Shown: positions 38,826-61,546 of the stretch, one piece after another
Numbering within the stretch: position 1 is the first letter of the stretch
How the letters are laid out: each line of letters starts with the position of its first letter
Virus record (IMG/VR): IMGVR_UViG_2925514151_000008
Span: 8,203-72,202 of that record
Reading direction: 5' to 3' (one strand)
From: a virus
Taxonomy: Duplodnaviria; Caudoviricetes
DNA length: 64,000 bases
Position numbers and translations under genes: made by a program
The notes under the pieces: model-generated
The model's database searches: none
Seen by the model: only the letters and a program-made list of their open reading frames with translations
Told to the model about the DNA's origin: nothing

Positions 38826-40734
38826 GTGCGCCGGGAGACCGGTAGAGATCAAGGGGTGAAAGTCCCCGACCATTGAAGGACCAGCAATCCACAAGGTCCC
38901 CGAGTCATGCGTTGCATACCGCGAGGTATGGGGCGAAGCGTTGACAGGGGTGTTGACAGGCCAGCCATTGAGCCACGAAATCTATATTAAATTACCGGGT
39001 GCCGACGTTGTACTGTTAACGGAAGGCAACATCATAGGGTGCAATACTGCGAGTGCCACATGGACCCGGCGGGGTCTGAGACCCTGGCATGTCAATACGA
39101 TCTCTACGCGGGAACCGGGAGATCTCCCCTCTGACCATCTGCCAGTGTCGGAGATGGCCCGCACCGGGAAGACGAGGAGTCATAGCCGGTGATGTACGGA
39201 GAGGAGAAGTCGGACTCGCTCATAGTAGCGGCGAAGCAGGCGAACAACCCGAAAGGAGCGGAGTCAGTGGAGCGAAGGAGCGGGGCCAAGGGGAACGCGG
39301 AACAGCCACACATGCGCCGGACACAGAGCCGGGAAAGCATGTCACAGAGGCTGTCACGCGTGCGGGAAGCTGCGAAGCAGCGGAAGAAAGAACGGTTTAC
39401 AGCATTGTTCCACCTGCTGACAGTCGAAGCACTGGAAGCCGCATTCCTCTCCCTGAGCAGGAAAGCGGCCGCCGGAGTGGATGGCATCAGGTGGATGGAC
39501 TACGCCGGAAACATGAAGAACAACATAACAGATCTGCACCGGAGGCTACATCAGGGCAGCTACAGGGCGCAGCCCGGCAGGCGTCACTACATCCCAAAAG
39601 CGGATGGAAAACAACGCCCGCTCGGCATCGCCTCGCTGGAGGACAAGATCGTCCAGTATGCGCTGGTGAAAATCCTGAACGCAGTCTATGAAAACGACTT
39701 TATGGGGTTCTCATACGGGTTCAGACCCGGGCGAAGCCAGCACGATGCACTGGACGCACTGGCCACAGGGCTGGTACGCACTAACGTAAACTGGGTACTG
39801 GATGCCGACATCAGTCAGTTCTTTGACAGGGTGAGCCACGAATGGCTGATCAGGTTCACAGAGCATCGGATCGGCGACCGGAGGGTAATCAGGCTCATAC
39901 GTAAGTGGCTCACAGCCGGGACGTCGGAGGAGGGTCAATGGCGAGCAACGGAGGAAGGCACCCCACAGGGTGCGGTCATCTCACCGCTGCTGGCAAACAT
40001 ATACCTCCACTACGTCTTCGATCTGTGGGCGCATCAGTGGCGACGTCGCTATGCCACAGGCAATGTGGTAATGGTCAGATACGCCGATGACATCGTCATC
40101 GGGTTCGACAAACGATACGATGCCCGGCGCTTCCGTATAGCCATGCAGCGCAGACTGAGGGAGTTCGGACTCACGGTTCACCCGGAGAAAACCCGTCTGA
40201 TGGAGTTCGGCCGCTTCGCTGCCGAAAACCGTGCCATCAGGGGAAAAGGCAAACCAGAAACGTTCAACTTCCTCGGGTTCACGCACATCAGCGGGAAAGA
40301 TCGCAACGGCAGGTTCATGCTGATACGAAAGACCCGCCGGGATCGGATGACGGCAACTCTGAAAGCCATCAAAGACGGTCTGCGAAGGCGCTGGCATTAC
40401 TCAATCCCCGAACAGGGAAAATGGCTCAGGAGAGTGGTTCAGGGATACCTGAACTATCACTCGGTACCGGGCAACTTCCCCACCATGCAGAAGTTCAGGA
40501 CACACGTAACAAACCTCTGGCGCCGGGCGCTCAGGCGCAGGAGCCAGAAGGATGATACGACCTGGACGAAAGCAAACAAACTGGCAGCCGCATGGCTACC
40601 AAGGGTTCGGGTTCTTCATCCATGGCCTGTGGAGCGGTTCACCGCCAGACACCCGAGGCAGGAGCCCGGTGCGTAAATCGCGCACGCCGGGATCTGTGCG
40701 GGGGGTATCCGGTAACGGGTATCCCTACCGCGAC
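38826..40734 (+). mobile_element. Complete group II intron (probably bacterial class E)
   Basis: 5' GTGCG at 38826; DV GAGCCCGGTGCG...CACGCCGGGATC 40662-40694; DVI with bulged A 40727; 3' CGAC 40734; removal restores TACTGTATATAAAAACAGT|A. Confidence 0.93.
39189..40676 (+). CDS. ltrA: Group II intron RT/maturase, no HNH domain
   Basis: [37 protein letters not shown]; stop codon falls in the DV loop. Confidence 0.95.
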
Positions 40735-40755
40735 ATTAATCTGAGCGAGTCAATT

Positions 40756-41175
40756 ATGCAGTTTTACACACCCGTTGAGTTACGTGAGATCATGCTGATC
40801 CCGTTGTACAGTGACCTTGTGCAATGTGGTTTTCCAAGCCCCGCACAGGATTACGTTGAGCAACGCATAGACCTGAATGAGTTACTAATCAATCATCCCA
40901 GTGCGACGTATTTTGTCAAAGCCGCCGGCGACAGCATGAAAGACGCCGGCATAGGGGAAGGGGATCTTCTGGTTGTGGATAGCTCAAGGACAGCAGTTCA
41001 TGGCGATATCGTTATTGCTGCTGTGGATGGGGAATTTACCGTTAAGAAGCTGCAGCTGCATCCGCGGGTTCAGCTTAACCCAATGAACTCTGCATATTCG
41101 CCGATAGTCGTGGGTAGCGAGGACACTCTCGACGTGTTCGGGGTGGTTACGTACATCATTAAATCAGCTGGCTAA
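40756..41175 (+). CDS. umuD: UmuD-like Pol V subunit
   Basis: [10 protein letters not shown] cleavage site, GDSM, FTVKKL; ATG 40756, 139 aa. Confidence 0.95.
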
Positions 41176-41176
41176 G

Positions 41177-42442
41177 ATGTTTGCGCTTTGTGATGTGAAT
41201 TCATTTTATGCATCGTGCGAGACCGTATTTCGTCCTGACCTGAAGGGGCGGCCGGTGGTCGTTCTGTCAAACAACGACGGCTGTGTGATCGCCCGTTCGC
41301 AAGAGGCGAAGCCCTTCGTCAAAATGGGCGAGCCTTATTTCAAGCAAAAGGACATGTTTCGCCGGCACGGTATTATCGCGTTTAGCAGCAACTATGAGCT
41401 TTATGCCGATATGTCCAACCGAGTGATGACAACTCTGGAGGAACTCTCTCCACGCTGCGAAATTTACAGTATTGATGAGGCATTTTGCGATCTGACTGGT
41501 GTTCGTAACTGTCGCGATCTTACCGATTTTGGCAGGGAAATTCGTGAGACGGTTCTGCGCAGGACGCACCTCACGGTCGGCGTCGGCATAGCCCAGACTA
41601 AAACCCTGGCAAAACTGGCCAATCATGCTGCGAAACAGTGGCAGCGACAGACCGGAGGAGTGGTGGATCTGTCTAATCTTGAAAGGCAGAGGAAGTTGAT
41701 GGCTTTGCTGCCGGTGGATGAGGTCTGGGGAGTTGGCCGCCGCATAAGTAAAAAACTGGAGGCCATGGGCATCAAAACGGTGCTTCAGCTGGCGGATACC
41801 GATATCCGTTTTATCCGGAAGCATTTTAACGTCGTGCTGGAAAGAACAGTGCGGGAACTGCGTGGTGAACCCTGTCTTGGGCTGGAAGAATTTGCGCCGG
41901 TAAAGCAGGAAATCGTTTGCAGCCGTTCGTTCGGCGGTCGTATCACGGAATACCATGAAATGAGGCAGGCTATATGTTCATACGCATCGCGCGCTGCGGA
42001 GAAACTCCGTGGCGAACATCAGTATTGCAGATTTATTTCCGCTTTTGTCAAAACCAGCCCCTTTGCGCTGAATGAACCGTACTACGGAAACAGTGCATCG
42101 GTAAAATTGCTTACCCCAACCCAGGATAGTCGGGACATAATCACTGCGGCGACAAAATGCCTCGACGCAATCTGGCGAGACGGGCATCGCTATCAGAAAG
42201 CAGGCGTGATGCTTGGGGATTTCTACAGTCAAGGCGTAGCGCAGCTCAACCTCTTCGATGATAACGCACCACGGAAGAACAGCGAAAAGCTCATGGAAGT
42301 ACTCGATCATCTCAATGCAAAGGATGGCAGGGGGACGCTGTATTTTGCAGGGCAGGGGATCCAGACAGCCTGGCGGATGAAGCGAGAAATGCTATCCCCG
42401 CGCTATACTACGAGATTCTGTGACCTGCTCAGAGTCAGGTGA
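41177..42442 (+). CDS. umuC: UmuC-like Y-family polymerase
   Basis: DVNSFYASCE, YSIDEAF, QLNLF clamp motif, LSPRYTT. Confidence 0.96.
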   Translation: MFALCDVNSFYASCETVFRPDLKGRPVVVLSNNDGCVIARSQEAKPFVKMGEPYFKQKDMFRRHGIIAFSSNYELYADMSNRVMTTLEELSPRCEIYSIDEAFCDLTGVRNCRDLTDFGREIRETVLRRTHLTVGVGIAQTKTLAKLANHAAKQWQRQTGGVVDLSNLERQRKLMALLPVDEVWGVGRRISKKLEAMGIKTVLQLADTDIRFIRKHFNVVLERTVRELRGEPCLGLEEFAPVKQEIVCSRSFGGRITEYHEMRQAICSYASRAAEKLRGEHQYCRFISAFVKTSPFALNEPYYGNSASVKLLTPTQDSRDIITAATKCLDAIWRDGHRYQKAGVMLGDFYSQGVAQLNLFDDNAPRKNSEKLMEVLDHLNAKDGRGTLYFAGQGIQTAWRMKREMLSPRYTTRFCDLLRVR

Positions 42443-42567: not shown

Positions 42568-43557
42568 TTAGGCCTTTTTTAAGTACTCTCGCTGAATATT
42601 ATTCGTAAGTGCAATTCTATTTATCTCATTTGGGGTAAAAACCAAATTAACAAAGCCCGCTTGCGCAGCGTGTAACCTACCAGTACTTTCTAATTTCCCC
42701 TGTGATTTTAACTCATGTTCTAATTCATGGATGAGCCGTACCAATTCTTTACCCCTAGAGGTGAGTGGTGCCATAAAAGATGGCTGTCTATCACGATCAT
42801 ACCATTCAATCATACATTCAGAAAAATCTACATCAGCTATATGTTGGTGCACGATGAACTTTATATACTCGAACAAAAAACTTTGTTCTGAATCACCGAC
42901 TCCGATAGCAAAAGGTAAATTTTGATTATCCATTTCAATTTCTGCTATTCCTAATGCCATATCCATGCCAAAATATAAAGATCGTCCGGCATTAGTTAGT
43001 CCAGTACAGAAAAGATTGAAGTATGAGACAGGAAATGAAGCATTGTTACTTTCAGATTTAATCAAATAGTCGAGGATATCTTCGACTGACATGATGTCTT
43101 GATCTAAAATCGCAAATCCTTCAAAGAGTTTTTTAGCACTGGTAGATTGCAAGACATTTGATTTAGGTATGGTAATACCTTTTGCATCAGTTGTCTTGGA
43201 AACTCTTAATGCATGGCGAACATCTTGCCAATAACTTAACTTTGTTTCTGGGTTGTGAATAATAATAAGCACAGGTAATGGGAATATTTCCCAGTAAAAT
43301 CGATGCTTCTCTTCCGGGTGGAAAATCCAACATCCATTACTTTCCTTAAAAAAGGACAGCCCTGATTTTATTTGAACGGCTATTATCCTTCCCGTAGCAA
43401 AACCCTCTGGATTAACATACTCGATCTGGCCATCAATTCCAACGTCAGCCATCGGAGTTTCACGCCAAATCTGGCCAATCTTGGCCATTGCTTCCGCGAC
43501 GGCATTTACACCCAATCTTTCCTGAGAATTAGTCTGGTTATATTTTGGGAAATTCAT
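42568..43557 (-). CDS. DUF4365 (PD-(D/E)XK) nuclease-domain moron
   Basis: WRE...DVGIDGQIE...IAVQIKS...FYWE..PLPV; AT-rich. Confidence 0.82.
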   Translation of the reverse strand: MNFPKYNQTNSQERLGVNAVAEAMAKIGQIWRETPMADVGIDGQIEYVNPEGFATGRIIAVQIKSGLSFFKESNGCWIFHPEEKHRFYWEIFPLPVLIIIHNPETKLSYWQDVRHALRVSKTTDAKGITIPKSNVLQSTSAKKLFEGFAILDQDIMSVEDILDYLIKSESNNASFPVSYFNLFCTGLTNAGRSLYFGMDMALGIAEIEMDNQNLPFAIGVGDSEQSFLFEYIKFIVHQHIADVDFSECMIEWYDRDRQPSFMAPLTSRGKELVRLIHELEHELKSQGKLESTGRLHAAQAGFVNLVFTPNEINRIALTNNIQREYLKKA

Positions 43558-43846
43558 TTTTTCCTCAATCGCATGACACTGGTAACATTATCTTCAGAAT
43601 CTGGCACAAAATTTCGCCAGAGATTTAAGTTCAGGTCGGTAGTCCATTGTTGATTTTTAACAGGTTTCTACTTAACCAGAGAAAACAATGCAAACAAACC
43701 GATACTGTCTATTTTCGAGTATTCGAAAATCATCTCGTAGTTATTGACTAATTATTTCCCCTGTGATTTTGTAACTTTTTGGGAGCACTGTAAAGTCATA
43801 TCAGACGAAGATTGTCTATTTTTGGCTCATTCCGACGTTATCAAAG

Positions 43847-44524
43847 CTATAGGCTTTTGATAGCCTCAATCAATTCCGGCCCCTGGTTTTTCACGTTACC
43901 CACGGCACGCGATACCGGGTGCCAGATGAAATGGTCGGCGGATACTGCTCCGTCTCCAGCAATTTCAACTGCCTTCGCCCCAGTGACATCCTTCCTCATC
44001 CATTCCCGGGCGGCTTCAGGCGCCAGGACCAGCGGCCGACGGTCATGAATATCGACCAGCCCGTGGTCAGCAGCTGCAGTCACTATCAAAAATCCTTCGG
44101 CTTCGTCTCCGCGTTCAAATGGTGTGCTTCCGATAGCAGCCATGAAAATCGGCTGGCCATCAGCACGCTGGATAAAATAGAACTGCTTCTTGTCGTCTTC
44201 CTTTTTCCATTCAAACCAGCCGTCTGCAAAACAAATTGCTCTCCCATATTGCCATAGAGGCTTAAACATTCTGCTTGCCGCCGCGGTTTCTACGCGTGCG
44301 TTAATGAGCGCTGGTTTATCCCACCACCCCGGCCTGTAACCCCAGTGAACCGGATCAAGGTGCAGTTGTTCATCACGTTCGCTCAGGAGCAAAACTTTTG
44401 TCCCTGGCGCCACGTTGTACCGGCCGATTGGTTCGGGGTCATAGGCGATATCACGCTCAGCTTCTTCGGCAAGGAAAGCTAGGTATTCTTCACGTGTCTG
44501 TGATTGAGCAAAGCGTCCGCACAT
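43847..44524 (-). CDS. SOS response-associated peptidase (SRAP/YedK family)
   Basis: MCGRF, RYNVAP, INARVET, IHDRRP, VGNVKNQG. Confidence 0.93.
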   Translation of the reverse strand: MCGRFAQSQTREEYLAFLAEEAERDIAYDPEPIGRYNVAPGTKVLLLSERDEQLHLDPVHWGYRPGWWDKPALINARVETAAASRMFKPLWQYGRAICFADGWFEWKKEDDKKQFYFIQRADGQPIFMAAIGSTPFERGDEAEGFLIVTAAADHGLVDIHDRRPLVLAPEAAREWMRKDVTGAKAVEIAGDGAVSADHFIWHPVSRAVGNVKNQGPELIEAIKSL

Positions 44525-44669
44525 GGTTACCTCCAGTAGTCATTCTGAAAGTATAGAAGACAGAAAATTGAGCGTTTCTTAGGGAGGTAAATAGCCCCGG
44601 AGTAGTTGCTATTGATGGGGTTTCTCCCCCGTTTCACCCCATTAACTCCCCGTACAAATTTTGAGCAAT

Positions 44670-44698
44670 AAAAAACCAACCGTAAAAGGTTGGTTTCA
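44670..44698. terminator. Terminator hairpin just downstream of the tRNA 3' fragment
   Basis: AAAAAACCAACC-gtaaaa-GGTTGGTTT. Confidence 0.65.
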
Positions 44699-44709
44699 TT
44701 GGGGAATTT

Positions 44710-44724
44710 TGGTCGGCACGAGAG
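44710..44724 (-). other. att core: 3' end of tRNA-Pro(GGG)
   Basis: TGGTCGGCACGAGAG is the reverse complement of ...CTCTCGTGCCGACCA; diverges beyond 15 nt so not a full tRNA; GTATGCCTA direct repeats at 44785 and 44797. Confidence 0.8.
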
Positions 44725-45051
44725 AGTGTGAATTGTAATTTCAATTACTTGTTTTTATTTAAAAATTTAAAATTAAATATTTTCGGTATGCCTATTTGTA
44801 TGCCTAAAATTAAAAGTCATCTCTAATCTTTCTTCCAGTACGCTACGAGGTAATGCTGACCCGGTTTTTTTGTACTGATGAGATAGTAGTTATGGTATTA
44901 CGCGCTCCAAAACACCTTAACAATTCTTAACTTATCTAGGATAGTTTTCTAGATTAAAAAACCTCAAAACTTAACTTATAACGTATTGATATTACTGATA
45001 ATAGATAATATCGGTACAGCACTTATAGTTTACTTCAATAGCAGGCTTTAC

Positions 45052-45320
45052 CGACACCGGTAAGTGTCAAGGAAGTTGGCGCCATTGGTTAAGTTAAGCG
45101 GCCTGTTTTGTCCGATCCGGATCAGTGTTACCGGGCCTTCCGGCTGCCAGTTTATCGTTTTGCCTGACCAGCGCTCAGGATGGGCCTTCTGTGCCATGCG
45201 GTACAGTTCATCACGCTGCTTCAGCAGCGCATTATCTTCGCCACGGTGACGCTGCCCGGGGTCACATATTGTATCCCGCTGTGGCGGTGTTCTTCGTTGT
45301 ACCAGCGGGTAAATGTATCT
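45052..45320 (-). pseudogene. IS3-family transposase 3' remnant with probable terminal IR
   Basis: TFTRWYNEEHRHSGIQYVTP, frameshift, then QRHRGED...HPERWSG..NWQP. Confidence 0.75.
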
Positions 45321-45893
45321 ATAGCCATTGGTATTGACCATGGGCACTTCAACCGACTGCCTCCACTGACCGAATGGCTGGATGATGGTCGCAGTATGCA
45401 GTTGAAACGACCGTTTGGTTACGTCTCGATGAATGGTCGAGAATGGAACGTCCCTATCATCACCATTGTAGACGGTGCTTCCATACCGCGAGTTTTCTGG
45501 TCCCTGATAGGTGGACAGTTTGAAGGGGCTTACCGTAACGCATCCATCGTTCATGATTATTTTTGCGATATACGCCCTCAACCTTGGCCAGACGTATATC
45601 GGATGTTCCATGACGCGATGCTATGCAGCGGTGTGCCCAGCTTGAAGGCGCGAATCATTTACTACGCGGTATATCGATTCGGGCCGCGCTGGGTCAATGT
45701 TCCATCGCTCGAACTGGCAAGCTTTGGGTTGAGTAAAGGTGTTTCAATTGTCCCAACGGAATTGCCAGCCGAAGTTTTCAATGCAGATTCTTTTATCGCG
45801 GACTGCGAACTGATAGAGCAAGATAACCTTGATCTTCCTGCGATTGAGCGGCTTGCAGACGCACGAAAGTCAATGTTCAAAACTGCTGACTAG
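45321..45893 (+). CDS. DUF1353-like protein, probably 5'-truncated by the IS remnant
   Basis: DGASIPR.FW...Y..ASIVHDYFC...YYAV..FG; conserved-looking block begins before first in-frame ATG (45396). Confidence 0.7.
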   Translation: MAIGIDHGHFNRLPPLTEWLDDGRSMQLKRPFGYVSMNGREWNVPIITIVDGASIPRVFWSLIGGQFEGAYRNASIVHDYFCDIRPQPWPDVYRMFHDAMLCSGVPSLKARIIYYAVYRFGPRWVNVPSLELASFGLSKGVSIVPTELPAEVFNADSFIADCELIEQDNLDLPAIERLADARKSMFKTAD

Positions 45894-45917: not shown

Positions 45918-47732
45918 ATGGGACATTATGGTAGTTCACCGAAAAATCTTAACTCAGTGCCTTCGACCGATAGCGAGCCCTGCATGGAAAGTACAGAAAG
46001 CAGTAACCCCTGTAGTAAATTGACTGACGACTTCGAACATGCGGTCGTGCATGTCGCTGTGGTTGTACCACCAAGCTCTACATCTGAGCGGTCTCCTCTA
46101 CGTTTGCTGTTTGCATCTGTCTGGTTGCTGGCATCAGGAAGGCAAGCTCCTTCAAGACCTCCCAAGCCTTACATGAAAAAATTTAGCAAAGAAGGCGCTA
46201 TAGCGGTCGACCGTATAGTCATGACCGCAGAAGAGGCCATCCAGTGGTATCGAAGTGCATCGGAAGAACTTTGTACACCATCTCCCCGTCATGGTTTCCG
46301 GGCGAATTCTGACGACGAACCCCTCTCAGTTGGCAGGCTAAGCGACTTTCCAAGTTGGCCTGTACTGGGCATACCCATGGAAAGCGAAGACATCGCGCTG
46401 AAATCTGAGCGTTCTACACTCCCCTTCCGTAACCTTGGCATTATCAGGTATTCACGTCGAATTTCAGACAGTCAGGAATGGCCGAGCTTCCTTGACACAG
46501 CTGGACAAAGCAAGCAGTGCCAGGAAGCCTTCCAATTCCTAGAGCACCACATGTACGTCGATTTTAGGGAATATCCTGAATATTTGGGTGGGATGGTACT
46601 CGCTGTCCCTGATTGCGACGTTCATTCCGTCCGACAGTTCGTTGAGCCCAAAGAGGACGGTTCCGAATCGTTGTACTTCCATGTGAGGCCCCACCCAGGC
46701 CGTAAACTCCAAGGTCTAAGCTTGACCTCAATGGAAGGACAGGAAGGGATGCTCACCTCCTTCGATACAGTTACGGTACCGGAAGATGGCTTGGTTGTGA
46801 TTGAAAGACCGTCTTCCATCCACGGCTCCGGTCTTGTCCTTACACATACGGAACGAGGGGTCTTACTGCAAACGCCCATGCGACAGTTCCTTCGACAAAT
46901 GAACATGAGGATTGACGTGATCGAGCGACGCGTCAAGGTTACTGCCCCAGAGACAGATAAAAAGAAGAGCCCAGTCAATGAGTACTTCACTGAAAAAAAA
47001 ACCTTTGCGTCCTCACAAACATTGGGTGAAGCACCGAACACGACTGACGCCTTCCAGCGTTTGCTAGACGCGAAAAACGAGCGTCTCCTTAATTACAGCG
47101 CTCAATTATATGATCAGACGTGGTTTGCGGCTGACCAGCGCAAGGAAGCGCTCGAGCACATCAGGAAAAAACTTAAGCATGCTCACTCAAGCATCTTCAT
47201 CGCTGATCCCTACTTCAGCGCAAACCAAATTTCCCAATACCTATTTGCTATTGAGCGAGACGAGATCAAGATACAAATCCTTACCTCAGGCAGTGCTTTC
47301 AAACAGATCAAAGAAGCGGAAGCAAGTCCCGAAGCCGATAGTGAGGCGGCGCTAGACGCACACCAGACAATGCTGCAAAACCTGGATATATTCAAAGCCA
47401 GCCACAGAAACAGCATTGAAATCAAAGTTGCCAATACAGAAAATAGCCTCTTTCATGATCGATTCATCGCGGTCGATGGTCGTGTATGGATGATAGGTAG
47501 TTCTCTGAACTCTATCGGTATACGGCCAACGCTGACCATGCGCATACCCCATGGCGAAAAAATCCTCACCCACCTCATGGACCTTTATAATAAGGCTACC
47601 CCTTTGAAAGACTTAAAAGTCCTGAAAGGAGGACCCAAGAAGCAATGCGCGAATTACGGGCGCGGAATGGTGGACGCGAAAGAGGCGCAGGACGAGGAAC
47701 CGCGCGGCGCGAAGGACGTTAATAATGAGTAA
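45918..47732 (+). CDS. VPA1262-like protein with C-terminal PLD-like domain
   Basis: IADPYF and FHDRFIAVDGRVWMIGSSLN (HxR-x4-D...GS.N variant). Confidence 0.72.
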   Translation: MGHYGSSPKNLNSVPSTDSEPCMESTESSNPCSKLTDDFEHAVVHVAVVVPPSSTSERSPLRLLFASVWLLASGRQAPSRPPKPYMKKFSKEGAIAVDRIVMTAEEAIQWYRSASEELCTPSPRHGFRANSDDEPLSVGRLSDFPSWPVLGIPMESEDIALKSERSTLPFRNLGIIRYSRRISDSQEWPSFLDTAGQSKQCQEAFQFLEHHMYVDFREYPEYLGGMVLAVPDCDVHSVRQFVEPKEDGSESLYFHVRPHPGRKLQGLSLTSMEGQEGMLTSFDTVTVPEDGLVVIERPSSIHGSGLVLTHTERGVLLQTPMRQFLRQMNMRIDVIERRVKVTAPETDKKKSPVNEYFTEKKTFASSQTLGEAPNTTDAFQRLLDAKNERLLNYSAQLYDQTWFAADQRKEALEHIRKKLKHAHSSIFIADPYFSANQISQYLFAIERDEIKIQILTSGSAFKQIKEAEASPEADSEAALDAHQTMLQNLDIFKASHRNSIEIKVANTENSLFHDRFIAVDGRVWMIGSSLNSIGIRPTLTMRIPHGEKILTHLMDLYNKATPLKDLKVLKGGPKKQCANYGRGMVDAKEAQDEEPRGAKDVNNE

Positions 47733-48360
47733 ATTATCGTCCCGGATAAATGTCAGTACGACCGAGTCGGTGGTAGACATAAAATATACCCCGAAGCTAC
47801 TCATACCTTGCGAGGCGTCCTACCAGGTCGAATCCAGTCATCGTTTCCCATCTTTTGATGCCATCAGAGCCCGTAAAGATGCTCTGAATGTACGGTTAGT
47901 CGAAGAATTTGAAACAGCAATTAGTACTGCGCAACAGGTGTGGATAATTGACAAGCATTTATTTTCTGCAGATGGTCAGGAACCCGACCATAGTATACGA
48001 ATTCAGAAAGTTGTGGATTGGTTTTGGACAGACCATATTGAAACAGTAAAGATTTTAACTGGTTATCATGATTCAAAGAAAAAAATCATGGATGATTTCG
48101 AGATCTTAAAGCAGTTAGTAACAGAAAATCGTGCCAAACTTGCCCCCCCCATGACAATCGAGGTCTCATTTAACCTCAGTAACGCCAACTGCATTCACGA
48201 TCGCTTTGCTATTATCGATAACGAATTATGGCATTTTGGCGCAACTGTAGGCGGTTTTCATCGGGATGTAAATGCCGTTAGTAGAGGCTGGAATGCTGAT
48301 GCTCATGATGCAGTGCAGTTTTTTGATACAGTTTGGAAGATGGCCAACGAGAAAAAATAG
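47725..48360 (+). CDS. Stand-alone PLD-like domain protein
   Basis: WIIDKHL and IHDRFAIIDNELWHFGATVGG; 8-nt overlap with upstream gene. Confidence 0.72.
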   Translation: MSKLSSRINVSTTESVVDIKYTPKLLIPCEASYQVESSHRFPSFDAIRARKDALNVRLVEEFETAISTAQQVWIIDKHLFSADGQEPDHSIRIQKVVDWFWTDHIETVKILTGYHDSKKKIMDDFEILKQLVTENRAKLAPPMTIEVSFNLSNANCIHDRFAIIDNELWHFGATVGGFHRDVNAVSRGWNADAHDAVQFFDTVWKMANEKK

Positions 48361-48362
48361 TC

Positions 48363-50282
48363 ATGAACAAAGAATGGCAATTGCCGCCCACTTATGAATC
48401 GGAAAAGCAGAAATCGTACACAATCGCCGAGTCGTTGATTGAAGACTTCGCAGAAGGTAGCTTCGCATCTCCCGATGCATTGATCACGTCTGTGACAGAG
48501 TACTTCTGCGCTCAGGATGATGCAGAAGATGCTCTTAAGAGGTTTACCGCCCACCTAAGCGGTTCCCACGAGGACTTCGATGCGTCGGACCATCCGAAAA
48601 TTCAGGCGGCCTTGGTAATTGGAATTGTAACGGTATGGGCCTCTTCAGAAACCGAAAACCGGTATACAGCCTTCAAGGCTCTCGTCCGAAACTCATGGTG
48701 GGTTGAGCATTTGTGGACGAAAGTGGCACTGGTTGTAGCTCTAAAAAATGATGTTTTCAAGGAAACACTCTTAAATTTGGCCGAACAATATTTCGTCGAT
48801 GCTGAAAAAAATCTGCTTCATGAAGACGTAGTTGATCCATCCTATCCAATCACCCTCGATGCAATTTGGTATGGACACACCTGGGAAAGTCGGGTCGATA
48901 ATTCCAGTTGGTCATGGATTGAATTACTGGCGAAGCTCGCTCCCGACAAACTATTAAAATGGATGAGTGCAACAAAAAATCTAGTCTTGATCAATCGAGT
49001 ACTCGAAAGCCCGGAGTTTTACCGTAACTACGATCTGTGGGAACAAATCACCCTCGGATCTTCACCGAGTTTCCAAAGCGATGGTTCATGGAATGGTGCC
49101 CTATTGCTTCCCTGCCTACTCAGGCACGGAAGTACAAAAATCATCCACCTTGCCAATGGCCGCGAAGATGATCCATCTGTGCTAGAGCAGCGCGTCAGGT
49201 CATTGCTCGCTTGTTTCGTTGCTACTGTCGCTAAAAGATCAGATTTCGAGGGTCTGTTCAAGCGATGGGGTACATGGCTCACTCGCCAACACCTTAACTT
49301 CTCTGATAACAGTTCGGATCAAAAACGACCTCTAAGCAGCCAAGATATATTATTGGCATTAGCCGAAAAACTCACACAGCCCTTTTCCCCAACCATTTCC
49401 GACCAATTGAATTTTTCGTGGGAGCAATGGGTTTACCAATCCATGCTGGCACTTTTACATTCGAACTACCCCGATAAGTTTGCGAAACCAGACGTCAGTG
49501 CCTTCATCGAAGAATGGAACTTGACACCTACCGAGTGGAACTCCTCTAAAGGTAAGTCGCTTCGAAGTCATGTTAGTCAATTTCATGCCAATCAGCCTAA
49601 CAACTATGCTTGCCGGGTGCTCGGGTATTCCATCGCCTTGAGCGAAGACTTCACCTGTCACTGGCTGAGTATGTGGAACTCTAGCGTTGCGCTGAGAGAA
49701 ATCCTCGAATTCCATCCCATTGATAGGATTTCCAAAGAATGGGAACCTTCGGATGCTTCAGGACTGATGCGTACATTGGTTGACGTAGGCCTAGGAATTC
49801 TAATCTGTACTGCAGACGTACAAGAAACTCTCAATCCCGAAATACTTAAGAAGTCCGCCGCGCTATTTCAAGCGCTGTGGGAGGCTACCACTGAGATGTT
49901 AAGCATTGACTTCTATGGTGAAGACTTCTGGCCAATCATGCAGCAGTACCTAGTCATTTTCCGGCTACGGTGGACAGTTGAAGCGAAGAATGCGAATGAA
50001 GATCATTACAGCACTTGGCTGGATCAGGCCGCCTACCCAACGTCACTGGAAACATTGGCCTTAGTCTCTAGCAATCCCTGTTCACTCATAAGACTGCTTC
50101 CCCTGCTTGTGCAAAACCATATTCCTAAAGAAGACTTAAAGGTCTTGCTCAGCCAGGCCGGAATTGACTTAGCTTCTCTCGCATCGAGTGCAGCCAGATA
50201 CCAGAATGGGCCTGAGAAGAAATTCAAGATATATCCTCGTCACGTCAACTTGATTGAAGAATTAGCTAAGGTCAGCAAATGA
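48363..50282 (+). CDS. Large Trp/Leu-rich helical hypothetical protein
   Basis: ~640 aa ORF starting 2 nt after the previous stop. Confidence 0.8.
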   Translation: MNKEWQLPPTYESEKQKSYTIAESLIEDFAEGSFASPDALITSVTEYFCAQDDAEDALKRFTAHLSGSHEDFDASDHPKIQAALVIGIVTVWASSETENRYTAFKALVRNSWWVEHLWTKVALVVALKNDVFKETLLNLAEQYFVDAEKNLLHEDVVDPSYPITLDAIWYGHTWESRVDNSSWSWIELLAKLAPDKLLKWMSATKNLVLINRVLESPEFYRNYDLWEQITLGSSPSFQSDGSWNGALLLPCLLRHGSTKIIHLANGREDDPSVLEQRVRSLLACFVATVAKRSDFEGLFKRWGTWLTRQHLNFSDNSSDQKRPLSSQDILLALAEKLTQPFSPTISDQLNFSWEQWVYQSMLALLHSNYPDKFAKPDVSAFIEEWNLTPTEWNSSKGKSLRSHVSQFHANQPNNYACRVLGYSIALSEDFTCHWLSMWNSSVALREILEFHPIDRISKEWEPSDASGLMRTLVDVGLGILICTADVQETLNPEILKKSAALFQALWEATTEMLSIDFYGEDFWPIMQQYLVIFRLRWTVEAKNANEDHYSTWLDQAAYPTSLETLALVSSNPCSLIRLLPLLVQNHIPKEDLKVLLSQAGIDLASLASSAARYQNGPEKKFKIYPRHVNLIEELAKVSK

Positions 50283-53712: not shown

Positions 53713-54582
53713 CTAGTAAAAAGTACTTGTCAGTGCCTCTCCTACGAATTTATCCCGCTGCCATAGAACCTGTTCCAGTAGTCGGGATCTTTCTCCGCTT
53801 TCTGCGCATGCCAGGGTATTGAGGAATATCGTTCTTTTAAGTGTTGCGCCCCCAGCGCCTGCCGCTCTAACTCGTGGACAGGAACTCCAAGCGCGTAGCA
53901 TTCCATCAGTAAAGGGCTGACCTTCACCTGTGCGGAAGGTTCGGGTTGCGAAGTCGTATCTGACATTATCTATCTCCGGCAGAGTGTTTTTCACTGAGCA
54001 CAATGATGTTCCTATCATTGAACTGATATTGTAAATATTATTTCCTGGGCGCCATTTTAATGGTGGAATTCCTAGCATATCTTCACCGTAGAGCTGGCGT
54101 TCATGCGGCTCGATATGTTCGGTGCCACCATGTTTGATCGCTGAAGACAGCATCGCCTCGGTACGTCTACGTATCGCGATATCAGATAGTCCTGCAGGAT
54201 CGCCAATAAATATTCGCCCGGTATTCACAGCATAATCAGCTACTGCCTGATATGCAGCGGAACCAAACTCTCCCTCCTTCAATTGACTGACATCAAACCA
54301 CACAACTTCTGGTTTACGGTAAATGTATATATTCACATCGTTTTTGATGATAACGCGAACAAGCTCAACACCATCAGGATTACAGTTATCATCTAAGCAT
54401 TCTTCTGTGAAGTTGATAGTTCCCCATGGGTATATCAAGTCAAATATACGTTGCAATGAGTGAATCCCTGTGGCTTTCGGATGCTGAAACAATGCACTCA
54501 TTGCCGATAATTCAATGATAAATTCAGCGGCAAATTCATATCGGTGGTAATCGGAATTTCTTATTTTATTTTTTGTCATCAT
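53713..54582 (-). CDS. Hypothetical protein
   Basis: 289-aa ORF co-oriented with upstream operon. Confidence 0.75.
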   Translation of the reverse strand: MMTKNKIRNSDYHRYEFAAEFIIELSAMSALFQHPKATGIHSLQRIFDLIYPWGTINFTEECLDDNCNPDGVELVRVIIKNDVNIYIYRKPEVVWFDVSQLKEGEFGSAAYQAVADYAVNTGRIFIGDPAGLSDIAIRRRTEAMLSSAIKHGGTEHIEPHERQLYGEDMLGIPPLKWRPGNNIYNISSMIGTSLCSVKNTLPEIDNVRYDFATRTFRTGEGQPFTDGMLRAWSSCPRVRAAGAGGATLKRTIFLNTLACAESGERSRLLEQVLWQRDKFVGEALTSTFY

Positions 54583-54624
54583 AGGTAAGTATTTAATCGA
54601 ATGATAAACTTTTTTATAAATTAA

Positions 54625-55629
54625 TCAGAATTTACCATTGCGGACGGCCTTATCACTTTGATGGATAAGAATAGTGTCATCTTCATTTGTAAAAACATTC
54701 TCTCTTTGTTTTTTACCTGATAAAAACCGTATGCTTTTTATTTTGTTTAGTATGACTGAACCAGTTAGTCCCTTTGTGTTTTCCTCATAGTATTTAAACC
54801 ATGGTAACTTATTATTTTTGTAATCTCTGCTGGTTATGGGGGGGCGGGGCATTGGATAACCTGTTAGTTTGTGCCAGTCAGATGCATTAATCATATGGAT
54901 AAAACAGCGTGAACTATGATTTGTATCCCACGCTGCAGGTCCATATATATCCTCTTTAATTTTCTGAGTGATTCGGCCACCAGCTCCCATTCCCATCAGA
55001 CAGTAAAGATCATTGTATTCTGGCTCCAGATAACTCTTGCATCGTTTCTTTCGTTTTGCCTCACGTTCTTCTCTTTCTCTTTTAGCCCTCTGAATAGCAT
55101 CATATACGGATGCTTTCATCGGCCAGGCAATAATCTGTAATCCACCAACTTCTGCAGACCCTGTGATTTGCTCTTCTACTGTATAACCTGATTGTAAAGG
55201 TACAGAGGTAAACTGCCGTACTGTACCCTGGCCGACATTAAAGCCATCCAGCCAATATTGACGTGATAAATCGATGAAATCTTGGGGGTGATGAGATAAT
55301 TCATTCTGCCATGATAACCCCGTAATGGCATTAATTTTTCCTGTAGCAATCTTCATAGCTATAGGATAATCACTGCTGAAGTTAATCCACATGGCCTCTG
55401 AATTATATATTGGCATGAGTACACCGCCTTTTTTGAGCATACAGGCGGGAATTTTTTCAGCGTAGTTATCTATATGAGCCAACTGGAACCTTCCAAGCCC
55501 GGCAGGTAATGGATATATGCGGTCATTGTCAGGTACACGTAATGTTCGCTGAAATGAGACTGTTCCAGAGGCCTTCGGATGGACTTCCGGAAATGAGATA
55601 ATCAACTGATTTTTATGAAGTTCAATCAC
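54625..55629 (-). CDS. Conserved-looking hypothetical protein (SFQRTLRVPD type)
   Basis: SFQRTLRVPD...LPAGLG, EAMWINF, WLDGF, VEEQITG..EVGGLQI, LPWF; AGGAG RBS. Confidence 0.8.
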   Translation of the reverse strand: MIELHKNQLIISFPEVHPKASGTVSFQRTLRVPDNDRIYPLPAGLGRFQLAHIDNYAEKIPACMLKKGGVLMPIYNSEAMWINFSSDYPIAMKIATGKINAITGLSWQNELSHHPQDFIDLSRQYWLDGFNVGQGTVRQFTSVPLQSGYTVEEQITGSAEVGGLQIIAWPMKASVYDAIQRAKREREEREAKRKKRCKSYLEPEYNDLYCLMGMGAGGRITQKIKEDIYGPAAWDTNHSSRCFIHMINASDWHKLTGYPMPRPPITSRDYKNNKLPWFKYYEENTKGLTGSVILNKIKSIRFLSGKKQRENVFTNEDDTILIHQSDKAVRNGKF

Positions 55630-55641
55630 AATTTTCTCCTT

Positions 55642-55992
55642 TTACCATTCACCATCTGTCACCTCACGAACGATACGCAATACAGCTGCTTCAGGCGCGT
55701 CTTTTAACTGTCTTAGCAACTGGGAAAAGAGCAGCGGACGTGAGCAGATAATTTCCTGTAAATCCGACGATATTTTCCCTGACATGGCCAGGACGACGTC
55801 AGGATCCAGTTGTAGCTCATGTGCAATTTTTTTCAGAGTAGCTTCTGAGGGAGGAGCGGTTTCTCCGCGTTCGATCTTGCTGAGATAAGCCGGTTCGATT
55901 CCTACACGCAGAGCAACCTGACGCAAAGAAAATGACTTGCTGTGTAAGCGTAGAAACTCACGCTGTTCTCTGAGTACGGTTCCTATGTTCAT
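55642..55992 (-). CDS. XRE-family HTH regulator
   Basis: SLRQVALRVGIEPAYLSKIERG. Confidence 0.88.
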   Translation of the reverse strand: MNIGTVLREQREFLRLHSKSFSLRQVALRVGIEPAYLSKIERGETAPPSEATLKKIAHELQLDPDVVLAMSGKISSDLQEIICSRPLLFSQLLRQLKDAPEAAVLRIVREVTDGEW

Positions 55993-56029
55993 GGGTGTGT
56001 ACTATATACTACACGCAACACACCATCAA
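55993..56029 (-). promoter_or_regulatory. Leaderless-type sigma70 promoter with overlapping inverted repeat
   Basis: Minus strand TTGATG-17-TATAGT, 8 nt, ATG; GTGTGTA...TACACGC dyad spans the -10. Confidence 0.6.
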
Positions 56030-56206
56030 TTATTAATTATGAATAAAATGTTCAGCGCGCTCACTTCAGGGCTGTTGTAATCCATCTTGGTGATTGAACA
56101 CATAGCTACCGCGCAACCGATTGTAAGGCTGTAGCAATAGGTGATGGATGTGAATAGTTTACCAGGTAGGGAGGTAACATCCCTGACAGCAGATGAAAAT
56201 CACTAA

Positions 56207-56269
56207 TTCCAACTATAGTTGGAAGACAAGGATATCATTGCTCGATGAAATTTCCAACAATTGTTAGAG
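56207..56269. promoter_or_regulatory. Paired palindromic operators
   Basis: Perfect TTCCAACTATAGTTGGAA 56207-56224; imperfect TTCCAACAATTGTTAGAG 56252-56269. Confidence 0.65.
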
Positions 56270-56285
56270 ATTGTTGGGAGGAACA

Positions 56286-56540
56286 TTGAATATCGCAATA
56301 GCTTTCGGAGGTGTACTGCGGCAGTTACGTAAGAACGCAGGATTAACACAAGAGCAACTGGGTTTTGAGGCTGAACTGGAACGTAATTACATCAGTATGC
56401 TTGAACTTGGACAACGTCAACCAACGTTGGCAACTGTATTCAAGCTTGCCTCTCCATTGAATGTTACTCCTTCGAAAATGGTGTCAATGGTAGAAGTTGA
56501 ATCCCTGATTTCTCCAGTAGAGAAAAAAAGTAAGAGTTAA
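56286..56540 (+). CDS. XRE HTH, controller(C)-protein-like
   Basis: FGGVLRQLR..AGLTQEQL...LERNYISMLE.G.RQPTL; GGAGG then TTG 56286. Confidence 0.82.
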   Translation: MNIAIAFGGVLRQLRKNAGLTQEQLGFEAELERNYISMLELGQRQPTLATVFKLASPLNVTPSKMVSMVEVESLISPVEKKSKS

Positions 56541-56737
56541 ACCTCTCATTTCACTGTTTCATGCGTTAAAGGTTTGCCGTATTTGATGCTTTTTTGCCAT
56601 TCCAGCTACCGTGAAAATGCATTGGGACAGTGGGGGCAACCAGATGTGGCTCGGGGTTGAGACGTCCCCGCCCGTTTTGAACAGTGGGGACAAAGCGGAC
56701 GGGATATCTAAAATACAACCAATCTTGTCCTCACCTG

Positions 56738-57060
56738 TCAGACATTGCGGCCCTCTCCGAATGACTGGAGTTCCTTGACTATCTGGCGCAGGCGGTAAAC
56801 GTCCACCACATCATGCATACCCCGGGTAATCTCGACGGTGAGCGCCAGCGACGCCCCAACGTCAAGCATTTCATCCGGGGATGTGTCGGCAGTGTCCGCC
56901 GCCTGTTCCGGCGTTTTTCCCATACAGACCAGAAGCGCGGCCATTCTGTCGGCGCGAAGTTCGGCATCATCAAAAAGGCGCTTAGCCTGCGCGGCGTCAG
57001 CGGTTTTCATCGTCTGAATCAGCAGGTCAGGGATTCGGGTATATCCGGCGTTACGCATGA
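56738..57060 (-). CDS. Hypothetical satellite protein
   Basis: MRNAGYTRIPDLL...; overlaps Icd-like stop; 3' end paralogous to 60886-61119. Confidence 0.65.
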
Positions 57061-57320
57061 TGGATCCCCTGAGCAGGGACGCGCTCGGCAAAGCACAGCA
57101 CAAAGTTCCCGGCCAGCAGGATGCGGGCGGTCAGTTCATCGGGTGCGGTGACTGATTCGCGGTGCGGCCTGTCGTTCAGGTCAGAACGGCGCAAGGCCAG
57201 AAAGTGAAACGTAAATTCATGGTGTGGTGGGATAAGGGTAGCAACCATAGCGGCTGCGGGAGGCTCCAGCGACTGAATGAAGTGACAAAGCGCGGGCGGA
57301 AGAATGAATGGTCGTTGCAT
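57051..57320 (-). CDS. Icd-like protein (host cell-division inhibitor family)
   Basis: FTFHFLALRRSDL..RPHRESVTAPDE.TAR..L...FVL.FA.R.P. Confidence 0.7.
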   Translation of the reverse strand: MQRPFILPPALCHFIQSLEPPAAAMVATLIPPHHEFTFHFLALRRSDLNDRPHRESVTAPDELTARILLAGNFVLCFAERVPAQGIHHA

Positions 57321-57740
57321 AAATTAACCCCTGTATTTTTGCGTATTCCTATGATTCACGCCATTTATACCCGTTATTTGCTGGTTTCTACCCGGTGATT
57401 TCCTGCAATCCCTTTGCTTGTGCGGCCTGCGGGTGTCTTATGGCAGGAATACCCGCCATAAGACACCCGCCCAGCTCAACAAATACGGTTGTATCCCGCG
57501 CCGCTACTGGCCTCGAGTGACTTCACCACTAGAAAAGCGCATTTTCTGGCAAAAATGTGCACTTTTGCGAGTCTGGATAAAATGGCCTGAAAGTCTTGTG
57601 CTGTCTGGCCTGCGGGCTGATTTCGTGCGCTTCTGCTGTTTCGCGGTTTTAAACGCTAAAAGAGCCTGAAAGCCGCGCTGTGTCAGGGACTTTGCGGTTC
57701 CTGCGCTGGCTAAACAGAGACGCACGATATTGTGCAAAAT

Positions 57741-57983
57741 GGTGGGACTGGTGGGAACTCTGGGAACCGCTTAGAACTGAGCGGGTTTCTGCGGTTCCCA
57801 CCGGTTCCCGCCCCCCAGTTTTGTGGGAACCGATGCGGTTAATATTTGTGCACTGCGGTTCCCACCTGTTCCCACTGAGTTCCCACCGAAAAATGAGGGT
57901 AAAAGGACAGTGTTTTAATGTTTATTTATTGTTTTATATTGTTTTTATTTGTGGCGGTTCCCACAGTTCCCACCAGTCCCACC
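57741..57983. repeat. Island origin-like region: GGGAAC/GTTCCC iterons inside a 30-bp inverted repeat
   Basis: 57741-57770 vs 57954-57983 match 29/30 as reverse complements; AT-rich tract 57900-57950; just downstream of the helicase. Confidence 0.8.
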
Positions 57984-58018
57984 GCTTTTTTATTTTCTGA
58001 AAACGGGTTTATTCTGTT

Positions 58019-59866: not shown

Positions 59867-60893
59867 TTTCTATCGTCCATATCATCAGGTCGTTAAAGTC
59901 GGACAGTTCGACGGGCGCACCGGGCGGCCACTCCGGGGAGACCACCATACACCCGGCCAGATACGCCGCCTCATTGGCGGCCCGGTCACCGGGGTTATCT
60001 TTAGATGTCCGGTCATCATCCCCGGCAATCACCATCTGAATGCCTGAGCCGTAGCGCCCACGCAGCGCCAGCGCCACATGTTTAAGGTTTCCTGCGTTCA
60101 TTGCACACACTACGGCCTGAATATCCCAGAATTGCAGTAGGGCGGCCCCGGTGGCCCAGCCCTCACACACATACACGTCATGCTGTGGGGCGTCCGGGCT
60201 CATTTGGTCAAAGTCCCCCATCACATGAAAAGCAAACTTCACCTGCCCGTTACGCAAAAACAGCTTGTGCCCGTCCGGGCGGATAGTCTGCACATTTACC
60301 AGTTCGCCGCGCACGTTGTGCAGGGGTACCAGCAAATCATGACCGGATTGATATAACCCGTGAGGCAGTAGCCGTTTAGCGGTCAGATACGGATGATAGG
60401 GGCTGGCCCTCTCTGCATTACTCAGTAATTCAAACGCCCTGCAGGCGGTCAGTTTATGAAGGCGCTGCCGCTGCTGTTGTTCGGTCTGCCTCAACTGGAC
60501 GACATCCCGCTCTGCTGCCTCCAACCGTTCTCGCTGAGCCTCACGCTGTCCGGTGTTCATAGTATCGGACTTACACAATGGGGGCAGACAGAGGCCCAGC
60601 CTGTCAGCCACAATGCGAGCGGCATCGATTTGGCGTAGGTTCCAGAGGTACGCCCCCAGTGATACAAGATCGCCTCCGCCGTCACCCGTGGCGAAGTCGT
60701 GCCAGCGGCCATCTAGAAGCGAAACAGAGAAGCTCCCGGCGTGACGGTCTGCCCGGGTGGGATTGCGACACGACCATTCACAAGCCTGTCGTTTACCTTC
60801 TGGCAGCCATTCCGGCACGAGAATTTCAGTGTATTGAGTGGCGGCAGCGGCCACTCTGCGGATTGCGTTGATTGTTGTGGCTATATCAGACAT
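59850..60893 (-). CDS. TOPRIM-domain primase
   Basis: NPTR.D...GSFSV, VCEGWATG, AGDDD, SDFND; ATG 60893 with GGAG RBS. Confidence 0.88.
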   Translation of the reverse strand: MSDIATTINAIRRVAAAATQYTEILVPEWLPEGKRQACEWSCRNPTRADRHAGSFSVSLLDGRWHDFATGDGGGDLVSLGAYLWNLRQIDAARIVADRLGLCLPPLCKSDTMNTGQREAQRERLEAAERDVVQLRQTEQQQRQRLHKLTACRAFELLSNAERASPYHPYLTAKRLLPHGLYQSGHDLLVPLHNVRGELVNVQTIRPDGHKLFLRNGQVKFAFHVMGDFDQMSPDAPQHDVYVCEGWATGAALLQFWDIQAVVCAMNAGNLKHVALALRGRYGSGIQMVIAGDDDRTSKDNPGDRAANEAAYLAGCMVVSPEWPPGAPVELSDFNDLMIWTIENEPEA

Positions 60894-61119: not shown

Positions 61120-61218
61120 CGCCACTCCTTTAAATTTTTTATAATAAGTGTATTTTATTTTTACCAAGAGCATGTGAGTGAAAATAAAAACTATCTGTCT
61201 GTTGGTAAGGGATTTTTA

Positions 61219-61416: not shown

Positions 61417-61495
61417 GGTTAAGTTCCACTGAATACCGGGTTACTCCGGCGATAAGTGGATATTGGCACAGTTTATTTTGGTTGATAAGACATAA

Positions 61496-61544: not shown

Positions 61545-61546
61545 AT

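Follow-up and report, generated by a model that had tools for sequence, protein, structure and literature searches.

The VPA1262 family was renamed Juno and presented as a single-gene anti-phage system in a preprint of August 2026 (bioRxiv 10.64898/2026.08.01.741415). In the portion of its text accessible to us, the preprint gives no mechanism, does not mention a phospholipase D (PLD)-like domain and describes a homologue search that required 70 % coverage; judging from that portion, a split form of the protein would therefore not have been collected. A PLD-like domain of the HDR type has been described for Menshen NsnC (PB-PLD1), the C-terminus of BrxL and the MIT_C domain of MITD1 (PMC12065111). 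Here we analysed a cassette of three open reading frames (ORF1, ORF2 and ORF3; positions 45918-50282, plus strand) in a 64,000-nucleotide stretch of Caudoviricetes DNA, hereafter the window, which is part of an IMG/VR provirus record (IMGVR_UViG_2925514151_000008) of 72,202 bases with an integrase at each end. What was already known comprises the ORF1 family, which is named by NCBI, Juno from the preprint and the HDR PLD-like domain. The conserved three-gene form is real and unpublished, as neither this architecture nor the ORF2 and ORF3 families nor experiments on them were found in the literature searched, with supplements and subscription journals lying outside the search. We propose that this operon is mobile cargo and acts as a defence system against phages or mobile DNA that is related to Juno, a statement which we consider evenly balanced as a whole.

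ORF1 spans 45918-47732 (+) and encodes 604 amino acids (aa) from 45918, or 582 aa from Met23 (45984), which is the start position in most ORF1 homologues according to their alignment; from the sequence, either position may be the true start. An initial annotation of the window had given the 604-aa size, and this frame is indeed present, but the protein may begin at Met23 instead. For the structural model of ORF1 and for its invariant residues, the numbering below follows the 582-aa form, to which 22 has to be added for the 604-aa numbering (H491 = H513). ORF2 (47725-48360, +) encodes a stand-alone protein of 211 aa with a predicted PLD fold. Its ATG at 47725 precedes the TAA stop of ORF1 (47730-47732), which results in an overlap of 8 nucleotides (nt; AATAATGAGTAA), and an AAGGA sequence is located about 9 nt 5′ of the ORF2 start. 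The TAG stop of ORF2 (48358-48360) is followed after a gap of 2 nt by the ATG of ORF3 at 48363 (AAATAGTCATG). From this ATG, ORF3 (48363-50282, +) encodes 639 aa, while its longest frame starts with a TTG at 48333 and encodes 649 aa (48333-50282, +); it belongs to no known family and is the conserved large partner in the cassette. The three tightly coupled, co-oriented frames of the initial annotation, with the 8-nt overlap and the 2-nt gap, were confirmed by the ORF list and the letters at the junctions, and the motifs that it quoted are present in ORF1 (FHDRFIAVDGRVWMIGSSLN) and ORF2 (IHDRFAIIDNELWHFGATVGG). A word-indexed search at E ≤ 0.001 recovered homologues of ORF1 in 62 clusters, of ORF2 in 151 and of ORF3 in 62 (the last with 47-100 % identity); with this many clusters for each of them, the three ORFs are real genes and not chance frames. 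An exhaustive HMMER search resulted in 623 ORF1 representatives (50 % clustering) at E ≤ 0.001, of which 357 had E ≤ 1e-10; none of the best 150 of these 623 is longer than 647 aa. Scans for promoters and terminators gave chance-level counts (9 versus 7.8 and 9 versus 6.3).

The triad is a conserved, tightly coupled three-gene unit that occurs from Proteobacteria to Melainabacteria, Bacteroidota and Leptospiraceae. The Klebsiella variicola plasmid pML9ba2 carries the cassette at 83 % DNA identity, and four more loci were found through ORF3, in Pseudomonas soli, Rheinheimera, Motilimonas and Chromobacterium. All five of these close loci have the order ORF1-ORF2-ORF3, with protein identities of 75-80 % for ORF1, 57-75 % for ORF2 and 77-82 % for ORF3. 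Searching through ORF1 alone, which is unbiased for the partner genes, we found at least 41 loci, 11 of them with a full-length ORF1-family protein. Among the matches listed, all 11 full-length loci continue with an ORF of 185-226 aa and then one of 580-675 aa, their ends overlapping or abutting; two of these entries, L006 and L017, refer to one and the same place, and L023 is broken into two frames. The hosts are Pseudomonas, Chromobacterium, Arachidicoccus and, as metagenome-assembled genomes (MAGs), four Gastranaerophilales/Melainabacteria, two Bacteroidota and one Leptospiraceae. The hidden Markov model (HMM) of the ORF2 family matched the second ORF in seven of the 11; in the remaining four, the match came from the ORF1 HMM and was confined to its PLD part. 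The co-occurrence of the genes, on which their initial reading as a single system depends, was thus borne out by both sets of loci and by further plasmids and genomes.

Among plasmids, tblastn with ORF1 matched seven records, six of which were covered here while a second Burkholderia plasmid was left out. The triad is present on the Burkholderia glumae and Azospirillum plasmids at an ORF1 identity of 24-27 %. The Rhizobium and Bradyrhizobium plasmids have ORF1 with one protein of about 594 aa, and the Methylorubrum plasmid has ORF1 with proteins of 659 and 260 aa. In a sample of 401 genomes, a full triad was seen in G636, a two-gene form of 534 and 483 aa in G461 and fragments only in G430. 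There was no DNA match to the cassette in complete E. coli genomes and no tblastn match to ORF1 in the phage collection. At two loci the ORF2 frame is interrupted and the other genes are intact, namely in Motilimonas (L005), where 169 aa remain, and on the Azospirillum plasmid (L012), where ORF2 is split into two frames. The remaining 30 listed loci (L027-L056) encode proteins of 125-425 aa with an HDR-type PLD-like domain at the C-terminus and were set aside as other families; they may represent single-gene families similar to PDC-S05. Most of these 30 come from rumen and gut MAGs of Kiritimatiellae, Bacteroidales, Clostridia and Bacilli.

ORF3 was described in the initial annotation as a helical protein of about 640 aa without a recognised motif; its helical nature is a guess, and searches against Pfam, NCBIfam, PADLOC and PDB sequences gave no match. 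Comparison with the Atlas returned nothing above chance (feature scores below 0.8). The protein is acidic and rich in Leu (12.7 %) and Trp (3.9 %), 17 Trp residues are invariant among close relatives, and its sequence has no membrane-like segment. A chain of similarities leads from ORF3 to the third gene of the Melainabacteria loci (HMM E 4.7e-7, BLASTP 2e-4, colinear), from there to Burkholderia (9e-16), from Burkholderia to Azospirillum (2e-37), and onward to the second genes of Rhizobium and Methylorubrum (2e-4 and 5e-5); the databases behind these E-values are very small, and each value is weak on its own. Direct hhalign comparison of ORF3 with the Burkholderia gene gave a colinear alignment with E 0.0028. 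Because position, size and colinearity agree, the large partner genes of the ORF3 type are likely homologous across these distant loci. The third genes of the Bacteroidota type were not linked to this chain. As the partner genes can be chained in this way and some loci lack ORF2, the conserved core looks like ORF1 plus the large partner, with ORF2 added in most forms.

The relationship of ORF1 to Juno is seen at the level of profiles. ORF1 matches the NCBIfam model NF040700 (VPA1262_N_dom) with E 2.7e-112 and 376 bits, where the cut-off is 80, and the alignment spans profile positions 3-478 of 478 and ORF1 residues 95-559, which makes it a member of this family. RefSeq uses the name of the VPA1262 N-terminal domain for the homologues in Klebsiella, Burkholderia, Azospirillum, Rhizobium, Methylorubrum and Bradyrhizobium. 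Two full-length VPA1262 members scored above their cut-off in the 401-genome sample, P0394 (1,103 aa, 973 bits) and P0395 (1,052 aa), and both show one D-P-[YF].../H-D-R-Y motif pair at about 440-525 followed by about 500 more residues. The ORF1 family aligned by hhalign with the N-terminal half of these two proteins (probability 94.5 %, E 7.7e-8, 327 columns); from these alignments we infer that ORF1 is a relative of the N-terminal half of Juno. The idea of a 'split Juno', in which ORF2 and ORF3 together would correspond to the C-terminal half, was rejected at the available sensitivity, as hhalign gave probabilities of 0.1-0.2 % for ORF3 profiles and 0.5 % for ORF2 against a shallow Juno profile of two sequences. 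No ORF3-type protein matched the full VPA1262 model NF040699 at E ≤ 10. Across 400 genomes from the class of genome G002, this full model found no protein at E ≤ 0.001 other than the ORF1 homologue of G002 itself. The Juno proteins have no match in PADLOC 2.0.0 or Pfam. The initial claim that the operon matches no named system has to be given up in this form, since ORF1 is a VPA1262_N_dom protein related to the N-terminal half of Juno and the HDR domain had already been described. Rst_3HP and other named multi-gene systems were also considered; apart from PDC-S05 and NsnC, no PADLOC model matched ORF1, ORF2 or ORF3 at E ≤ 0.1, and we take the PADLOC collection to include the Rst_3HP models.

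The AlphaFold2 model of ORF1, built from 56 divergent relatives (pLDDT 86.5, pTM 0.77), has a beta-rich N-terminal two-thirds and an alpha/beta C-terminal domain. The middle beta-sandwich (46434-46895, +; residues 151-304) resembles Ig-like and GH2 sandwiches with Z 8-9.5, a common arrangement that makes these matches weakly informative. For the N-terminal part, the best Atlas score was 0.84 to a cluster named 'putative VPA1262 family', which we treat as a lead only. The C-terminal domain (47097-47618, +; residues 372-545) is supported as a PLD fold by the model and by several comparisons. Pfam PLDc_2 matched residues 416-529 with E 1.1e-9. The VIA comparison gave Z 13.6 to FAM83A (4urj; 3.0 Å over 146 residues), 12.9 to SauUSI, 12.8 to Nuc (1bys, 144 residues), 12.7 to NucT (6ehi), 11.8 to the NgoAVII R-protein, 11.3 to Zucchini, 10.6 to MITD1 and 10.1 to BfiI, and Foldseek agrees with VIA on the fold. 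PADLOC added two weak matches, to PDC-S05 (E 3.2e-8, 31 bits) and to Menshen NsnC (E 4.4e-5, 21 bits).

ORF2 has no match to any Pfam or NCBIfam family. Its AlphaFold2 model, from 61 sequences (pLDDT 83.6, pTM 0.81), consists of one domain which is likewise supported as a PLD fold. With Foldseek, MITD1 (4a5z, E 3.3e-5) was the top match, and Zucchini, NucT and PLD3 came next. The best 28 rows of VIA all belong to the PLD superfamily (Z 5-10.5) and the next row reaches at most 4.3; the top matches, with Z 10.5-10.2, are 4urj, F13, NucT and Nuc, and MITD1 follows at Z 8.4. PADLOC gave a weak match to PDC-S05 (E 3.8e-5, 21 bits). When run on a small search space, the ORF2-family HMM matches the PLD region of ORF1-family proteins (E 1e-5 to 2e-8), which makes ORF2 a paralogue of the C-terminal domain in ORF1. 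That each of the two proteins has a single PLD-fold domain and an H-x-R variant of the motif, as proposed at the outset, is supported by the Pfam, AlphaFold2, Foldseek and VIA results.

The catalytic motif of the PLD superfamily is defined as HxK(x)4D(x)6GSxN, and nucleases with a single such motif build one active site from two chains by homodimerising. Neither ORF1 nor ORF2 has the canonical motif, but both keep the HKD spacing. The H-D-R motif of ORF1 lies at 47454-47462 (+; H491-D492-R493, or H513-D514-R515 in the 604-aa form) and reads H-D-R-F-I-A-V-D-x6-G-S-S-L-N; that of ORF2 lies at 48196-48204 (+; H158-D159-R160) and reads H-D-R-F-A-I-I-D-x6-G-A-T-V-G-G. Among 56 ORF1-family sequences that share just 20-39 % identity with the query, D408, H491, D492, R493, G505, S507 and two other residues are invariant; D408 (D430 in the 604-aa form) is the Asp of the ORF1 'DPYF'. 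The invariant residues of 61 ORF2-family sequences include D76, H158, D159, R160, D165, G172 and T174. Both families thus share the pattern H-D-R-x4-D-x6-G-x-[S/T] together with an acidic residue ending an early core strand. According to the models, D408 of ORF1 follows strand 403-407 and its HDR (491-493) precedes strand 493-497, while D76 of ORF2 ends strand 71-76 and its HDR (158-160) precedes strand 161-164. Both proteins therefore have the Asp or Glu after an early strand and the H-D-R before a late strand that characterise the HDR-type domain. That two single-motif paralogues are encoded by adjacent genes is no more than a hint at a composite active site.

The same residues can be read in a different way, namely that the HDR PLD-fold domains are non-catalytic modules binding a ligand, a membrane lipid or a protein, and that the killing or blocking activity resides in ORF3 or in the N-terminus of ORF1. 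The cassette could then still be a defence system, just not a composite nuclease. We consider this unlikely, although a number of observations fit it. Arg replaces the Lys of HKD in all 56 ORF1-family and all 61 ORF2-family members and ORF2 lacks the Asn of GSxN. Pfam PLDc matched neither ORF2 nor the Juno proteins, the best structural matches include the DUF1669 domain of FAM83, TrmB/TrmBL2 and the MIT_C domain of MITD1, and PMC12065111 cites a MITD1 reference whose title speaks of a PLD fold that binds membranes. On the other hand, the His, Asp, Arg, second Asp and G-x-S/T are strictly invariant in families whose overall identity is 20-35 %, which is a pattern typical of active sites, and by general chemistry Arg may bind phosphate as Lys does. 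Moreover, the true nucleases Nuc, NucT, SauUSI, NgoAVII and BfiI score equally high against ORF1 (Z 10-13), and there is no membrane-like segment in the sequence of either ORF1 or ORF2.

Under the catalytic reading that we favour, ORF1 would keep the N-terminal core of Juno, and the C-terminal half of Juno would be replaced by two separate genes, ORF2 and ORF3. The PLD-fold domains of ORF1 and ORF2 would pair in the way in which single-motif PLD nucleases dimerise, so that two H-D-R half-sites might form one asymmetric phosphodiesterase site cutting nucleic acid. ORF3, the N-terminal domains of ORF1, or both, would sense the infection or hold the enzyme in check. We lean slightly towards the cassette being a defence system, but hold it doubtful that the mechanism with the composite ORF1:ORF2 site is right in detail. 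The most far-reaching version, a widespread and ancient three-component immune system in which an H-D-R PLD-fold heterodimeric phosphodiesterase is gated by ORF3 as a large Trp-rich sensor, seems to us rather unlikely.

The pairing itself could also be of another kind. ORF1 might homodimerise, as is presumed for Juno, and ORF2 would be a regulatory look-alike that caps the dimer interface or competes for it, so that the enzyme stays off until it is released by ORF3 or by a phage cue; a composite ORF1:ORF2 active site would then not be obligate. The accessible part of the preprint presents Juno proteins as acting as single genes, and they have one HDR domain; two-gene variants without ORF2 exist (L013, L015 and G461), and ORF2 is interrupted at L005 and L012 with the other genes intact. 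The loci without ORF2, together with the single HDR domain in Juno, mean that ORF1 may form a homodimer without ORF2. Nevertheless, we regard the cap as improbable, because the motif residues of ORF2 are all invariant in its 61 sequences, which would be unexpected for a mere cap, and none of the 11 full-length loci listed via ORF1 lacks ORF2.

Several further results weigh against the proposal of a heterodimeric defence nuclease related to Juno. The evidence for defence is borrowed from Juno, a relative that shares the ORF1 part only. Against the full VPA1262 model NF040699, ORF1 reached 41.7 bits over profile positions 286-521 only, far short of the model's cut-off of 325 bits, and the PADLOC matches of the three proteins are weak, at the level of domains and of at most 31 bits. 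The HDR variant in PMC12065111 is a prediction and not demonstrated catalysis, and several of the top structural matches (FAM83, TrmB/TrmBL2 and MITD1) are non-catalytic PLD folds. ORF2 was not recognisable in three of the six plasmid loci (L013, L014 and L015, from Rhizobium, Methylorubrum and Bradyrhizobium) or in genome G461. The cassette is also rare: in the 401-genome sample the triad was seen in one genome beyond the two already known, and the viral contigs of IMG/VR include just one more that carries the cassette. Finally, at some loci the neighbours are not of a defence type (an ABC transporter, a GH2 glycosidase and a sugar ABC operon).

Regarding its genomic setting, the cassette is mobile cargo that is often but not always found among defence genes. 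On the Klebsiella plasmid, which is conjugative, it adjoins Abi and TrlF-family genes, a type IIG restriction enzyme is a neighbour at one other locus and a SIR2-family gene at another, and on the second viral contig it is accompanied by a Rep_trans initiator and a CI-like repressor. In Rheinheimera sp. A13L (L004, 1561-13300), it is situated between the TnsB/TnsC-like and the TnsD(TniQ)/TnsE-like genes of a Tn7-like transposon; a position inside the row of transposition genes is unusual for cargo. A large gene on the same strand lies directly upstream of the triad in Azospirillum (L012, 1889-5833) and in two Gastranaerophilales MAGs (L018, 3006-5672, and L020, 3785-6466). The product of the Azospirillum gene is an ATP-binding protein of 1,314 aa, whose P-loop matches (LmuB/DndD-like) are weak, and the ORFs at L018 and L020 (888-893 aa) had no Pfam and/or PADLOC match in the scans made. 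Some variants may have a fourth component.

In the window, the placement of the cassette at the cargo end of a satellite-like island, as proposed initially, is plausible: it stands between prophage tail, reverse transcriptase and UmuDC genes on one side and a primase-integrase module of the satellite type on the other. A tail fibre gene (35619-37580) is located upstream. A group-II-intron-like reverse transcriptase of 495 aa (39189-40676, +; Pfam RVT_1 E 4.6e-47, PHROG 'Reverse transcriptase' E 1.4e-149) comes just after the tail fibre genes; its best PADLOC matches are to generic reverse transcriptases and to homing-endonuclease or group-II-intron-like ones, and to no specific DRT or retron class. 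It is followed by a pair of UmuD-like (Peptidase_S24) and UmuC-like (IMS, IMS_C, DUF4113) genes (40552-42442, +), a DUF4365 gene (42568-43557, −) with a PADLOC match of the Aga_REase-PNTD type (E 2.5e-21), a SRAP/YedK gene (43847-44524, −) and a DUF1353 gene (45180-45893, +; E 2e-18) directly upstream of ORF1. A 187-aa ORF without Pfam match (45048-45611, −) overlaps the DUF1353 gene. Downstream of the cassette, 53713-64000 on the minus strand constitutes the satellite-like module, with an LPD37-domain protein (53713-54582, −), a primase pair formed by a DUF927 gene (58019-59866, −) and a Toprim gene (59850-60962, −), a gene of low GC (0.37-0.39) without known family that adjoins the integrase (61547-62614, −) and the integrase itself (62741-64000, −) at the window end. 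The primase pair is 79 % identical to that of small integrase-primase islands, which occur in 94 of 5,426 E. coli genomes and have the order integrase, HTH, Icd-like, Toprim and DUF927.

Given such neighbours, the cassette could alternatively serve the mobile element in a non-immune way, as an addiction or stabilisation module, as a factor in competition between elements or as a phosphodiesterase that processes damaged DNA. The cassette is always on mobile or variable DNA, and the following genes are found close to it: the SRAP and UmuD/UmuC-like genes in the window, a SRAP gene directly upstream at L015, and at L011 YcaQ upstream with ImuA and a Y-family polymerase downstream. However, the SRAP, UmuC, DUF4365 and DUF1353 neighbours recur in none of the 24 other loci searched with the window proteins, where the sole SRAP match was the L015 query against itself. 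Furthermore, Abi, restriction, SIR2 and AAA-ATPase genes are neighbours at several loci, and the sole experimental data for any relative, those on Juno in the accessible part of the preprint, are anti-phage. We therefore consider a non-immune function very unlikely and retain the reading of the cassette as a candidate defence system.

As for expression, two RNA-seq contigs of 7.4 and 6.8 kb, from two libraries of one study, cover the region from 45083 or 45668 to beyond 51500 with depths of 105 and 79. The adjacent DNA at 43500-44834 has no cover, and 44835-45635 has a depth of about 3 in one run; this contrast argues for transcription and against carry-over of DNA, although contigs of this kind cannot show the strand or a single transcript. 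Both contig starts (45083 and 45668) fall in the 45048-45893 stretch upstream of ORF1 and suggest that the transcript begins between about 45.08 and 45.67 kb. The wastewater metatranscriptome runs X17 and X18 contain short pieces only, and we make no claim about habitat.

The N-terminal core of Juno also exists as a separate and much wider gene family, with 623 representatives at 50 % clustering, which is almost always tied to a large partner gene and usually also to a second PLD-like paralogue. Juno is newly reported as defence without a mechanism, and the cassette offers its natural 'split' version, in which the effector, the partner and the possible sensor can be deleted and mutated one by one. 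With it, one can also test directly for enzymatic activity of the HDR form of the PLD fold, a point that concerns Menshen NsnC, BrxL and MITD1 as well. Should the triad defend, it would be a new multi-gene system which PADLOC 2.0.0 does not call. If in addition the heterodimer is true, it would provide the first demonstration of the HDR PLD branch (NsnC, BrxL and the eukaryotic MITD1) as a catalytic immune effector, and the single-gene Juno and the triad would be alternative solutions built on one effector core.

Compared with the described systems, the cassette has most of its architecture in common with Juno on the side of ORF1, which shares the N-terminal region, the beta-sandwich and the one HDR PLD-like domain; both are found on mobile or variable DNA. 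In Juno, however, a single protein of about 1,030-1,100 aa includes a C-terminal half of some 500 aa, whereas ORF1 ends about 40 residues past the PLD-like domain and two further genes follow; Juno is a single gene, whereas ORF1 is always accompanied by one or two partner genes. The PDC-S05 candidate of PADLOC, for which no paper was found in our literature search, has a C-terminal HDR PLD-like region that aligns with both ORF1 and ORF2. It differs in being a single gene of about 300 aa, and only the last ~130 (ORF1) or ~40 (ORF2) of its ~300 profile positions match, with low scores. In the single-HKD nucleases Nuc, NucT, BfiI, SauUSI (N-terminal domain) and Zucchini, too, each chain contains one PLD-fold domain, with Z 10-13 against ORF1 and 7-10.4 against ORF2, and the spacing is likewise H-x-[K/R]-x4-D-x6-G-[S/A]-[S/T]. 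They differ from the cassette, in which Arg stands for Lys, ORF2 lacks the Asn and two different paralogous chains take the place of one homodimerising chain. With NsnC PB-PLD1, BrxL and MITD1, finally, ORF1 and ORF2 share the acidic residue after an early strand and the H-D-R before a late strand; at the level of profiles the only match was the weak one of PADLOC NsnC to ORF1, with none to Pfam MIT_C at E ≤ 0.1. In contrast to these proteins, the cassette has no ParB-like or inPIN domain and no NsnA or NsnB, and its HDR domain is either fused to a large beta-rich N-terminus, as in ORF1, or stands alone, as in ORF2.

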